Shown: positions 34,081 to 45,606 of the stretch, piece by piece | Position numbering within the stretch: the first letter of the stretch is position 1 | Layout of the letters: each line of letters begins with the position of its first letter | Assembly: GCA_951406725.2 (NCBI GenBank) | Contig: OX597833.1 | Span: forward strand, 69,316,001 to 69,380,000 | Source of the DNA: Octopus vulgaris | Taxonomy: Eukaryota | Reading direction: 5' to 3' | DNA length: 64,000 nt | The notes under the pieces: generated by a model | The model's input: the letters and a program-made list of their open reading frames with translations, nothing else | What the model was told of the DNA's origin: nothing | Database searches by the model: none | Program-made: the position numbers and the translations under genes

Positions 34081-34601
34081 ATTAATTTATAAAAATATGG
34101 TAAAGTAAAAGAATTCACTTTACCACACACCGAACTTTTCCGAAATAGCAGCCAAAAACTTGGCTATTTCTTCAACTGCAAATAAAAGTCTCCAGACAAT
34201 GCATACTCAGAAAAATAACTCACATAGGAATAAGGGAAAAACAATGAAAGATCACATCCATATACGATACCCGAGGACAGTCTGTTTCTGGATTTGTGGG
34301 TAAAACGCCACTTTTCCTTCATCAGCTCAGAGATTTCTTTTGATTTAGATTTGAAAATACTAAGAATCAAACATACCCGTCCGATATCTGTAACATCGGA
34401 CAAACTATGCCAGACATCCAGTACTAGCGAATCCAAAAATACGAATGAGATCTATTATTCTCCCTGTCCGCCCACGTGAGTCATAGAGCATTCCATTTCT
34501 ACAGAGGTAAAAACTGCAGTTTAAATTCTTGGAGTTGAAGAAATAGCCAAGTTTTTGGCTGCTATTTCGGAAAAGTTCGGTGTGTGGTAAAGTGAATTCT
34601 T
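34081..34601 (-). mobile_element. HHR-bearing insertion in (TA)n with a perfect 69-bp inverted terminal arm
   Basis: 34109-34177 is the reverse complement of 34533-34601; (TA)n on both sides; HHR on - at 34270. Confidence 0.85.
34270..34331 (-). ncRNA. Type I hammerhead ribozyme motif
   Basis: tctgag-CTGATGA-agg aaaa gtgg cgttttac ccac aaat cca-GAAA-cagactg-TC-ctcggg. 6-bp stem I with GU pairs, GUC triplet. Confidence 0.8.
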
Positions 34602-34816
34602 ATATATATATATATATATATATATATATATATATATATATATATATATATATATATATAATTTCAGTAAAACAATTAAGATTCAAGTGAGTTCCAATGA
34701 ATTCATATGAATGTGGTACTTAACTTAGAAGCACCAGAAATCTTTATGGTATTAACCATAAAATAATGTGGGGTGATTATAAACAAGAAAAAAAAGCAAC
34801 AATATTGGATTAGTTG

Positions 34817-34905
34817 TTCAGTACAATTGTTTCATACGAAGAACATATTTATTAAAAGCTGCAAATATTGCATCAAATACAAATGTCCTGTATTCATCAG
34901 CCAAA
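34817..34905 (-). ncRNA. Type I hammerhead ribozyme motif with extended stem II
   Basis: tttgg-CTGATGA-atac aggacat..tgcaa tat ttgca..atgttct tc gtat-GAAA-caattg-TA-ctgaa. Canonical core, palindromic CAATTG. Confidence 0.82.
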
Positions 34906-34963
34906 ACACATATGAGTTTTCCAAAGGGGATGTTGTCACCTCAAACATCTCAGAAACTTTATT

Positions 34964-35162
34964 TGTTCAATTCGGAATAAACAAGGAATCTTAGTGCCTG
35001 CGGATAAAACTGGTAATCTGTATCGAATAGATTACACTCTTTATAGCAAGCTAATTAAGAAGGAACTCAACTCCAAATATAAAATTAATACAAAGAAAAA
35101 TTTGAAAAAAATAAACCTAGAAATGAAGGAAATTATGAAAAGATACAATTTAACGGATAGAT
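34964..35162 (+). pseudogene. Penelope-like element reverse transcriptase N-terminal fragment
   Basis: [56 protein letters not shown]. The (P)ADK motif followed by Y..Y..L..YK is characteristic of the region preceding PLE RT motif 1. Confidence 0.75.
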
Positions 35163-35306
35163 ATGCATATATATATATATATGTATATATATATATGTAT
35201 ATATATATATGTATATATATATATGTGTATATATATATATATATATATATATATATATATATATATATATATATATATATATATATATATATATATATAT
35301 ATATTA

Positions 35307-35673
35307 TATTATATTAAATTAGAGACAAAACCACTATTATGCAAATCAAACAAAGAAAGACTTAAGCCAATACATAAAATAATTTATATAAATTTAACAT
35401 AGTTTAAAACTCGCCAAGAAGGTTTTGAAACCACCTGAAGAATGTCTTAAAGATGTGCTGACACGAAACGATCGTAGTGGTTATTTATAATTGTTAAATT
35501 TTAATTTATATAAATTATTTTATGTATTGGCTTAAGTCTTTCTTTGTTTGATTTGCATAATAGTGGTTTTGTCTCTAATTTAATATAATAGAATATTTTA
35601 CTATAAAATTGGATTCAATCCTGAATCTGATTTTTCCCTGTAAATTTGGATTTATTCCCTAATATTTATTATT
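35307..35673 (+). mobile_element. HHR-bearing insertion in (TA)n with an ~88-bp inverted arm
   Basis: ~35307-35394 is the reverse complement of ~35501-35590, with the HHR in the spacer. Confidence 0.85.
35429..35482 (+). ncRNA. Type I hammerhead ribozyme motif
   Basis: aaccac-CTGAAGA-a tgtc ttaaagatgtgct gaca c-GAAA-cgatcg-TA-gtggtt. Perfect 6-bp stem I, palindromic CGATCG. Confidence 0.85.
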
Positions 35674-35764
35674 ATATATATATATATACAAGCATACACA
35701 CACGCATATTTATATATATATATATATATATATATATATAGAGAGAGAGAGAGAGAGAGAGAGA

Positions 35765-42105: not shown

Positions 42106-42539
42106 GTTTCGCTTCTGTAAGAATATTCTCTTACAGTCTTATTGTCGTTTCGAGTCCATTTCCTCTTTTCTTTGTAGCAGCATTCGGATAGCGACTAAGT
42201 CTACCCTGGTGCACTACAGAACACTTGCCGTGCGAAAGACCTTCACTGGGGGATCGGCTGTCATGAACGTTGTTGCTATGATTTTGATTTGGCATCACAC
42301 TCATAAAGAGGGCTGTGTTGATTAGGTGTCACAACCACCGGCGCCTTCATCGAGACCCTGTCCCTGGTGAGGTTGCCAGTCAAGGCCTAGCCGTTTTTCA
42401 ACTGCCGCTACGTTTATAGTTCAAATTACAGCGAGGCCCACTTTGTCTTTCATACTTTCGGGTTCGATAAATTAAGTACTATTGAAACCTAGCCCCCTCC
42501 CCACAATTTTCAATCTTTGTACTTTTAGTACAAAGTATC

Positions 42540-42642
42540 ATTGTTGTTGTTGTTGTTGTTAGTAGTAGTAGTAGTAGTTGTAGTAGTAGTAGTAGTAGTA
42601 GTAGTAGTAGTAGTAGTAGTAGTAGTAGTAGTAGTAGTAGTA
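42540..42642. repeat. (TTG)n/(TAG)n microsatellite
   Basis: Directly visible. Confidence 0.95.
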
Positions 42643-42979
42643 TCTTCGTAATTATTATTCTTATGTAGCATGTGTAAATTAGATATATACTTGCTTTCGA
42701 ACACCATTATCACAGCGGGAAGCTTTGATATGATGCCAAAACATACTTCTAATTACCAACAAGATAAATTGCACTAATTAATATGCCTACTCCATAATCA
42801 GGCTTGCTTATTATGCTGTTCGAAAATGCTCAGCTAAATGAAAAGTGAGCAGACTAAATTGTTTAACTTTATCTAACTGTAATCTACTTTTCCTGATATA
42901 ATTATTTTCCAATGGAGACTAATCACTCCGAAACAAGATATAGCTGGTGTTCTAACAAAGAGCTGATACATTATCGCAC

Positions 42980-43430
42980 AATTACCTATTTATTAGTATA
43001 CTGATAATATAAGTAGGTTTTTGACTGACAGAGTAACGAATATCGTATCACAGGTCTAGGTGCAGGCATAGGCCCTATTGCGACTGAGAGGAACCTTTTG
43101 CAAATGCCTTGATGCATAGCCCTATTGCAAATGCCTTGATGCAAAGCCCTATTGCGGCTCACAATGTCGCGCACATGATTGTGATGCATGTGCCTGGTGT
43201 ACCCTTATCAGACGGGTAGTCATGATGGGTATACTGTACTTCGTATATTTTACCCCAGTATCACTTTGATGGCATGCACTGCTCTCTCAGACAATAATTA
43301 CCTATTTATTAGTATACTGATTATATAAGTAGGTTTTTGACTGACAGAGTAACGAATATCGTATCACAGGTCTAGGTGCAGGCATAGCCCTATTGCGACT
43401 GAGAGGAACCTTTTGCAAATGCCTTGATGC
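42980..43430 (+). mobile_element. Truncated (TAA)-tailed retroposon (43165-43296) flanked by a ~135-bp direct duplication
   Basis: 42980-43115 is nearly identical to 43296-43430. Confidence 0.85.
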
Positions 43431-45019
43431 CAGTTCTCTTTGGCACTGTGAAGGAGTTTGCGTATGCTTCATTTTTTTTCAATATATTATTAATTTAAAT
43501 AGTTTTAAGTGGAATTTTTTGCAGGCAGCAATCATGTAAAAACCACGTAAAAGAAAATTTCCTGGGTTCGAAGAAATCGATTTTTCCCAGGCACCGAACT
43601 TTTTAGGCCTTGTGCTAGAGTTTGAAACCAATATTTCCCTCTTCTAATAATGGTGAACATAAACCATTTCCCCCATAGAAATCGCCGACGACGTGTTGCT
43701 TCAAAAGGAATGTAACAACAATTTCGCACGTATAATGATAGCTTCTCATCATCCTTAGTGTAGTGACTGATATGGTTTTGTTATGCTTATTTGCAAACTC
43801 GGGGTGACGAGAGGTTAGAGTGCAGCCCATTGTGTTCAATTCCACTGCTCATCTTCATATACTCACACCTCTCTCCCCTTCTCTGTTTATTTCTCCATCC
43901 TTCACTTTCTCTTTCCCTCCCTCTTTATGTATATATATATATATGAATATATATACACACACACACACACACACACATATATATATATATATATATATAT
44001 ATATATATATATATATATAAAAATATATATATATATATATATATACATATATATTATATATATATAATGCAGGTACAGAAGTGTACCTACACGTGTGCTG
44101 TTGGCGATTTCTTCTTTTCTTTCGTTGACTATAGCCCTTTCTCCTTTCCAGCGGGCTTGCACGCAGTGTCTGTTTACCAAATTCGCTCAGAAGTTATTAG
44201 TCTGACTAGAACTATAACAGATGACATTTACTGCAGATGGAGACCTGTATTACAACTAAGTCCGAAAGTACGTGGTGCCAAATCAAGTTAATTAGACACT
44301 CTATCGCCATACTATGATGTGTGAAGTTTCATTCGTTGAAACCAACCGAATTTATCTTCCCGTTCTTCAGGGAAAGATAGTGATACCCCTAACCCAGTGT
44401 TTAACACCAAAACCTGACGTCTGATACTCTCTAGACTATCCACATGCTGAAAGATTTGCGAAGTCATTTCAAGTGAGGATAACACCCTGAAATTACAAAT
44501 CTGGAAGGCCATGAAAAAAATTCTTTAGCACTGTTCTTGAATATGCATGTGTGAAATTGGGATGCACCGAGACTGGAATATCGAATTCATCAATCAACAA
44601 AAATCTGTTAGTTCTCATCGGCTCAGAATAAAATCTGAAATTTGTTTTCTCCCTATCTTTGGTCAATCGCTCAATATATCTATCAATCAGTGTATCTAAC
44701 TACCTATATCTTCCTATATCTATCTTTCGATCTACATTTTCCTACGTATATCTATATACTTATATATAGGTATATATATTTATATATATTTACATATATT
44801 TTCTTATATCCACCTACATAAATCTATATTTGTCTATATACCAAGTTATCAAACTACCTACCTATGTATCAACTAACCTACCTACCTGTCCGTTTGTCTA
44901 GCTGTCTGTCTTTCTATTTATCTATCTATACCTTTCTCTCCGTATATATATATGTATGTATGTATATATATATATATATATATATATATATATATATATA
45001 TATATATATATATATATAT

Positions 45020-45310
45020 ATTAAATTAGAGATAAAACCACTATTAGGCAAAACATATATATATATATATACATATAAAAGATAATGGTGTCATTGAGAC
45101 CCAAAGGCGTCAGGTAATGCTGAATAGGTGCTATAGTCAGACCTTGGTTAAGTTCTAGATTCGGTAATATTGCGAATAAAGGGTTCAACGTTGGTTCTGT
45201 GTCAGCGTGTGTATATATGAATTTTTTTTTGCCTAATAAGATAAAACAGCTGTAAGACCCTCTATCTATAAATACTCTAATATCTATACAGCCTTGATTT
45301 TTTTTATCTT
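45020..45310. mobile_element. pLTR-like fragments in (TA)n
   Basis: ttaaattagagataaaaccactatta matches 35314; aaacagctgtaaga at 45244 matches the HHR 3' half at 5736. Confidence 0.55.
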
Positions 45311-45339
45311 ATATATGTATATATATATATATATATATA

Positions 45340-45606
45340 TAATGTAAAGTATAGAAGCCATCTTAACATGGCTAACCACATAGGGGAGGGGGTGTTACTG
45401 TAGCTTTATAGCCCCAGGAGATCGTCGTCTCCAGCTGGCTTTAGACGCCATTTCAGTGCCCTTTTAGTTGGAGACGACGATCTCCTGGGGCTATAAAGCT
45501 ACAGTAACACCCTCTCCCCTATGTGGTTAGCCATGTTAAGATGGCTTCTATACTTTACATTATCGAGCGATTACTGTTTCAATCTCATTCTGAGATTTAA
45601 TAATGC
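45340..45606. mobile_element. Inverted insertion in (TA)n, diverged relative of the 37667 unit
   Basis: 45340-45433 is the reverse complement of 45469-45562; shares aagccatct..atggcta, ggggtgttactgt and tagccccagg with 37726-37793. Confidence 0.85.

Follow-up and report, generated by a model that had tools for sequence, protein, structure and literature searches.

How can a short insertion come to have two ends that both look like the 3' end of a retroelement? The question is raised by a 64-kb stretch of the Octopus vulgaris genome (GenBank assembly GCA_951406725.2, contig OX597833.1, positions 69,316,001 to 69,380,000 of the forward strand; here referred to as the window, with coordinates counted from its first nucleotide), which is AT rich and rich in microsatellites and short repeats. 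An earlier note on this DNA had described six such insertions (here referred to as 5335, 34081, 34660, 35307, 37667, and 45340) and had attributed them to twin priming of cDNA synthesis from a palindromic (TA)n target. We find that the inserts are real and nonrandom and display a known signature of Penelope-like elements (PLEs) in new nonautonomous families, and we are moderately confident that priming from both target strands (dual priming) is the best model for their form. All counts of arms and ends come from this one window.

Inserts carry head-to-head arms with outward-facing 3' ends

Polarity was assigned by a separate scan of the whole window for type I hammerhead ribozymes, without using the polarity given in the earlier note. 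The scan returned nine rows at eight places, seven of them PLE-type (5632+, 34325-, 34900-, 35435+, 37922-, 38281+, and 45995-). Six hits had a stem I of at least 4 bp, compared with no such hits in 10 shuffles, and each counted hammerhead is directed outward to a TA-run end 112 to 287 nt away. An Rfam search at gathering score gave no matches, and minimum free energy (MFE) folds neither reproduced the hammerhead fold nor gave each end site a clear hairpin; the 3' region of 37667 was no more stable than shuffles (z = -0.5). The premise that the hammerhead strand is the sense strand is valid because, in the supplement of Craig 2021 (PMC8557442), all 24 Hydra or Hydra-type Repbase families for which a hammerhead is listed have it on the strand of the open reading frame (ORF), mostly 100 to 200 nt from the 3' end. 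Insert 45340 has no ribozyme of its own, and its polarity follows from its 73 to 78% identity to 37667; that of the right arm of 34660 follows from a piece of ORF on the + strand.

With polarity assigned in this way, hammerheads, self-alignment, and the ORF piece confirm that all six named inserts are two-armed, with 5' ends fused internally and sense 3' ends facing outward. The same head-to-head arrangement is found in a seventh, very small insert at 25142-25192 (25140), so that it holds for seven of seven two-armed inserts. The statement that it applies to every insertion goes too far: three related pieces, 24949, 45021, and 45640, have only one recognizable arm, leaving 7 of 10.

The layouts of 5335, 34081, 35307, 37667, and 45340 were obtained by self-alignment; the long end of an insert is the one that carries an extra tail. 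In 34081, the left arm (34083..34528, - strand) has the long end, with a tail of ~26 nt (34083-34108), and a type I hammerhead (34276..34325, -), while the right arm (34529..34600, +) has the short end. In 35307, it is the left arm (35311..35405, -; inner boundary approximate) that has the short end, and the right arm (35406..35672, +) carries a hammerhead at 35435-35476 and a long end with a tail of ~84 nt. Insert 5335 is an old copy whose arms are ~85% alike: its left arm (5335..5524, -) has the long end, with a tail of ~60 nt, and its right arm (5600..5949, +; 5' start approximate) has the short end at (TA)n and contains a type I hammerhead with a long stem II insert (5632..5746, +). The left arm of 37667 (37667..38043, -) comprises a 360-nt unit plus 17 nt, with a CCGA-core hammerhead (37922-37889, -) and a long end whose tail is 37667-37709; the right arm (38043..38492, +) comprises 1.25 units of the same repeat, with a hammerhead at 38281-38314 and the short end. 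These arms, of 377 and 450 nt, are staggered and have 2 differences between them. Insert 45340 has a left arm (45342..45467, -) with the short end, which owns the central spacer, and a right arm (45468..45606, +) with the long end and a 44-nt tail.

The two remaining inserts differ in that their arms do not overlap. The left arm of 34660 (34661..34915, -) has a hammerhead (34900-34822) followed by 161 nt to its end, like a Hydra-clade 3' end, and its right arm (34916..35166, +) is a stop-free piece of a Hydra-type PLE ORF (the DKT region) whose 3'-facing end lies mid-ORF, at (TA)n. In 25140, a member of the 35307 family, the left arm (25142-25175, -) is derived from the tail only and the right arm (25177-25192, +) lies at the short end. 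As for the one-armed pieces, 24949 (24949..25060, -) is a distant relative of the 37667 family with its 3' end at (TA)n and its 5' end at a GT repeat; 45021 (45022..45053, -) is a short arm of the 35307 family with its short end at (TA)n and its 5' end abutting another TA run; and 45640 (45639..46010, -) has a hammerhead (45995-45926) and a 3' end at (TA)n, with no second arm found. Next to 45021, a + strand piece at 45072-45317 has the 3' half of a 5335-like hammerhead and matches the 45021 arm over 13 nt; together, the two may be one rearranged insert.

Several hammerhead-like motifs lie outside this count. The place at 39326- (two rows) was left out because it pairs solely with a GATA repeat. 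Around it, at 39311-39435, is a diverged head-to-head pair, 76% alike, which adjoins the GATA repeat instead of TA and in which both arms have a minimal, outward-pointing CTGAnGA-nnn-GAAA core. Opposite the accepted ribozyme of the 360-nt unit is a further motif (37865-37931, +; CCGATGA, 4 nt, GAAA, and a long stem III), which was rejected as a true ribozyme because its stem II cannot pair, whereas the accepted ribozyme fits the Hydra pattern; the motif has probably arisen as a side effect of the long stem I. A CTGACGAAGCCCAA motif at 14094-14118 resembles the start of the 5335 hammerhead, with the second half absent, and is perhaps a decayed relative of it.

End points are reused and paired, long with short

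When 37667 and 45340 are aligned, both end points fall in identical columns, 44 nt apart, with the sides swapped, confirming that these relatives share their end points in the way that the earlier note had described. For a 360-nt unit, two random end pairs would agree to within 2 nt with a rough probability of 4e-4. In the 35307 family, the short end is reused in three of three copies (35307, 25140, and 45021) and the long end, within ~7 nt, in two of two. Random orientations and end points, named beforehand as an outcome that would count against the proposal, were thus not seen in this window. Of the 17 sense 3' ends, 16 border a run of (TA)5 or more; run edges of this kind make up 2.7% of the window, a comparison to be read with the fact that the inserts were partly selected by their TA flanks.

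In all six inserts whose ends can be mapped on one sequence, the tail (26 to 84 nt) is confined to one end, such that a long end is always paired with a short one. Under independent 50:50 choice, the chance of six such pairs is 1 in 64, or 1 in 16 for the four in families with reused sites; a fold-back at 37147 with equal ends was left out of this count. That fold-back (37147-37589, ~443 nt) has ends starting TATAAT, arms of ~200 nt, and a unique center, with no hammerhead found, and could be a miniature inverted-repeat transposable element (MITE) or an equal-ended copy of an unrecognized family.

The unequal ends bear on the possibility that the inserts are fold-back DNA transposons or MITEs, with terminal inverted repeats (TIRs) and a TA duplication, or else an assembly artifact. 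TA-flanked inverted repeats do look MITE-like, as does the hammerheadless fold-back just described, and two almost identical arms are what an artifact might produce. However, the ends differ by 26 to 84 nt, the inserts include hammerheads and a piece of a PLE ORF, and no transposase family reached its cutoff among the 140 ORFs of the window. Fixed TIRs with a matching transposase had also been named as a refuting observation; ends are unequal or disjoint in seven of seven inserts. Substitutions between the arms and clean joints argue against an artifact, and opposite-strand joints of the 37667 family also occur in contigs of two public sequencing runs. We consider this explanation extremely improbable.

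The proposal that priming takes place at UA-containing sites in the RNA went beyond the evidence. Among five distinct end sites, two share 3 to 5 nt with (TA)n and three share a single T, and UA pairing is therefore not the rule; in vitro, moreover, the Anolis PLE protein PAc initiates without homology to its target (PMC11167929). Nor is a palindromic (TA)n target needed, because the same head-to-head form occurs in Adineta vaga with 8- to 10-bp target duplications (PMC3846280). In 34081, a hairpin is predicted whose loop contains the short site. Near the 3' end of three diverged relatives, two small hairpins are kept (38106-38165, 45530-45595, and 24970-25040), the tail hairpin having one pair that differs (TCTCT/AGAGA versus TCTCA/TGAGA); from their sequence, these hairpins are a candidate protein-binding signal.

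Arm overlap argues for two priming events

Fold-back of a single cDNA requires that one arm lie within the other. This is the case in only two of seven inserts, 34081 and 35307. In 5335, 25140, 34660, 37667, and 45340, neither arm is inside the other: the short-end (tailless) arm reaches further 5' than its partner in 5335 and 45340, and the disjoint arms of 25140 and 34660 have no sequence in common. In a Hydra element, the position that corresponds to the outward-facing right end of 34660 would be ~1.7 kb upstream of the hammerhead, as estimated by eye. Simple fold-back therefore fails for five inserts. One could also suppose a single event of target priming, the inverted arm then being made either by repair synthesis or by the cDNA end turning back to copy itself; this would fit the two nested inserts and the 99 to 100% likeness of the arms in young copies. 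Since it conflicts with the other five and leaves the fixed, reused stop of the second arm unexplained, we regard it as very unlikely.

The arms could instead be two independent one-armed insertions, oppositely directed, that entered one symmetric (TA)n run, followed by loss of the intervening TA. Serial insertion into one TA tract is clear at 34081/34660/35307 and at 45021/45340/45640, one-armed pieces exist (in one of them, 45021, the 5' end adjoins a TA run), and 34660 could have formed in this way. Nevertheless, the two arms of an insert are of the same family, up to 99 to 100% alike, and joined without TA, despite the presence of at least five families, and events that were separate remain divided by TA runs. 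As a general account, independent insertion is thus highly improbable.

The most serious competitor is self-priming of an antisense transcript, in which the RNA's 3' end folds back and is copied into a hairpin and staggered endonuclease cuts then give a long and a short end. This model was put forward for head-to-head arms and intron retention (Arkhipova 2013, PMC3846280), and Craig 2021 attribute the tail to endonuclease resolution (PMC8557442). It accounts for one long and one short end per insert and is compatible with the five inserts that are nested or staggered. Palindromes at six junctions have stems of 3, 2, 6, 7, 3, and 5 bp, compared with a background median of 4: stems of 5 to 7 bp near three junctions are in its favor, while those at the other three are weak (2 to 3 bp), and the palindrome of 35307 is part of the element itself. 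The disjoint arms of 25140 and 34660 offer no common sequence for folding, and in vitro, sense RNA is copied from a nicked target at sites that match genomic ends (PMC11167929). We judge antisense self-priming to be unlikely.

Two-strand priming is the model that we prefer, in a form that differs from the one first proposed. Priming of both strands is supported in part; twin priming as in L1 does not fit, in that the arms overlap in five of seven inserts. The same sequence was copied twice in these five, which therefore points to dual priming, from two templates or a tandem RNA, rather than to L1 twin priming. What is new here is the comparison of arm overlap, together with the two disjoint copies and the mid-ORF end of 34660; as a layout, head-to-head arms are already established as a hallmark of PLEs (PMC8557442).

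A number of points weigh against this reading. All seven two-armed inserts come from one window, in which there is no autonomous element, and the three one-armed pieces show a single end each. The three staggered inserts also fit an asymmetrically cut antisense hairpin; the sole inserts that it does not fit are the two that are disjoint, either of which (25140, which is tiny, or 34660, which abuts a long TA tract) could owe its form to later deletion. An origin of both 34660 arms in one family is unproven. The in vitro data concern Poseidon, not Hydra, and record no strand difference in start site (PMC11167929). Finally, among 24 of 207 loose contig ends of the 37667 unit in public runs (described below), none enters (TA)n at either end site.

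Under dual priming, an endonuclease would nick both strands of a (TA)n run, and from each freed 3' end a separate cDNA would be started at either of two favored positions in the RNA behind the hammerhead or, occasionally, at a stray site, as in 34660. For overlapping arms, a second RNA would serve as the template, or else a second unit of an RNA that is tandem or circular. The two cDNAs would stop early, their ends would be joined with 0 to 1 nt or a few nucleotides of homology, and repair would fill in the rest. One-armed copies could arise by extension of one strand only or by later deletions. The six of six long-short pairs, a small sample, hint at two coupled starts. We tentatively raise the possibility, without favoring it, that two-strand priming is the normal PLE route and that its starts are coupled, with the long site used by one protomer and the short site by its partner.

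If this is true, coupled two-strand priming would provide one mechanism for both the inverted arm and the one-sided tail, replacing antisense self-priming. The origin of PLE inverted arms has been called undefined (Craig 2021, PMC8557442), and antisense self-priming is the one explicit model that we found for them (PMC3846280). Twin or dual priming applied to PLE inverted arms was not found in the literature covered, a scope to which most subscription papers and older Penelope reviews did not belong. Should two coupled primings prove to be the rule, PLEs, which are telomerase's closest relatives, would integrate by a route that is accidental in L1, and short noncoding copies in TA repeats would supply a large natural body of data on it. 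As elements, the inserts are ordinary and of known kinds.

The inserts are PLE derived

We are highly confident that the copies are truncated or nonautonomous PLEs. Known PLE traits include an inverted 5'-truncated copy, a 30- to 40-bp tail at one end, and a (TA)n bias (PMC8557442). The protein that mobilized them was most likely of the Hydra clade, an assignment for which the evidence is the shape of the ribozymes and a single ORF piece. The piece, in 34660, is an 84-residue frame (34916-35167) with 73 homologues over its length (best E value, 5e-8); one further hit, the 74th, is to a repeat protein that is unrelated. The Hydra clade is marked by RWK and by DKT instead of DKG and also has canonical hammerheads and (TA)n targets (Craig 2021, PMC8557442). 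The ORF piece and 63 of its 73 homologues have DKT and none of the 73 has DKG, while RWK is found in 10 of the 73, many of which are fragments; this evidence applies to 34660 only. Longer homologues continue into reverse transcriptase (RT) motifs, the window piece, counted as 82 codons, lying upstream of the RT core. Pfam gave no name for the piece or for 17 homologues, a word-indexed protein search for longer relatives returned 0 of 90 candidates, and ESM Atlas returned only unnamed bacterial clusters (0.90-0.91), which were not used. A metagenome pattern scan had no matches.

In the Craig 2021 supplement (PMC8557442), a (TA)n target is listed for 26 of 27 Hydra families, and Penelope-13_HM carries an inverted 5'-truncated copy. 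Naiads have the same (TA)n target and lack canonical hammerheads (PMC8557442). The noncoding families could have been moved by another hammerhead-bearing PLE clade.

One family is a retrozyme-like tandem unit

The family of 37667 and 45340 is a retrozyme-like 360-nt tandem unit: it is noncoding, has one type I hammerhead per unit, and folds strongly (z = -5.3). Part of the 37667 locus is present in 20 of 24 listed public runs, in all cases as contigs and with no RNA data set among the recorded holders, and in four of four runs examined, the unit is a variable multicopy family, with 1367, 216, 802, and 611 contigs placed on it. Contigs of two runs contain two opposite-strand joints at positions unlike those of the window, in a table that gives no polarity. 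One loose contig end lies exactly at the long site, 38176 (run X7), and enters AT-rich, non-TA sequence. Contig depth is unable to rank parts of the unit, and depth steps near the two end sites were not used. The CCGACGA core at 38281-38287 varies by contig depth, being mostly T at 38281, 38282, and 38285 in runs X13 and X19 and mostly C at 38281 and 38282 in runs X1 and X7.

Other repeats in the window

An inverted pair of a common repeat resembling a short interspersed nuclear element (SINE), 83% alike, lies at 19806-20048, head-to-head or tail-to-tail, and further inverted pairs are at 14565-14698 and 25367-25448. Tandem repeats include a 37-nt minisatellite of 35 copies (12753-14023), a SINE-derived 183-nt tandem (22269-22820), a long GATA array (35740-36470), and a 33-nt repeat (40369-40599).

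Comparison with known integration systems

The inserts share with the Hydra clade a sense type I hammerhead near the 3' end, 112 to 287 nt from the ends here, with the same short palindromic stem III as the hammerheads in the supplement (PMC8557442), and a (TA)n target, 16 of 17 ends here being at TA runs. They differ in being short and mostly noncoding, with tails of 26 to 84 nt instead of the stated 30 to 40, and no full ORF, GIY-YIG domain, or CxCX5C linker is found within the window; by eye, the ORF piece is of a different family from Hydra-1_Obim. Relative to the signature of endonuclease-containing (EN+) PLEs, the head-to-head inverted arm is present in all seven two-armed inserts, and the partial tandem structure (pseudo-long terminal repeat [pLTR]) is seen in 37667 only, in both arms, with a 360-nt period. 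Non-LTR retrozymes (PMC7229834; Li et al. 2026, bioRxiv 10.64898/2026.07.22.740005) are likewise tandem noncoding hammerhead units, of 150 to 400 nt, but 37667 has just 1 to 1.25 units per arm, arranged head-to-head, and its core, CCGACGA, has C for U4 of CUGANGA in what is a predicted ribozyme. From MITEs and other TIR transposons, the inserts are set apart by ends that are unequal or disjoint in seven of seven cases and by the lack of a transposase among the 140 window ORFs.

An experimental parallel is the Anolis protein (Poseidon PAc), which in vitro nicks and extends both target strands (Frangieh 2024, PMC11167929). It uses two internal RNA start sites that bound the tail and match genomic ends, with no target homology (PMC11167929). 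Putative tail-bounding start sites are found in the window as well, as is the AT-rich target; PAc is a predicted dimer. A PAc start lies in a stem-loop, as does the short site of 34081 in its predicted hairpin. In PAc, however, the hammerhead overlaps the ORF start and initiation is inside the ORF, whereas the hammerhead here is a 3' untranslated region motif; the available text of that paper does not discuss inverted arms. Penelope of Adineta vaga (Arkhipova 2013, PMC3846280) has head-to-head inverted pLTRs and an optional 31-bp tail, like the window inserts, but its copies lie in nonmicrosatellite DNA with 8- to 10-bp target duplications, and its authors propose antisense self-priming.

Dual priming by two RNAs has been proposed for L1 (Meyer 2010, PMC2837659). 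As in L1 twin or dual priming, both strands here would prime, the outer ends face 3', and the joint may lack homology (PMC2837659). The geometry of twin priming, with disjoint arms, is seen here only in 25140 and 34660, the arms of the other five inserts overlapping; any target site duplication would be masked by the (TA)n. L1 uses its poly(A) tail and an internal site that varies, a minority of its events are of this kind, and the arms do not overlap (PMC2837659); in the window, by contrast, both sites are fixed, overlapping arms are usual, and most copies (7 of 10) are two-armed.

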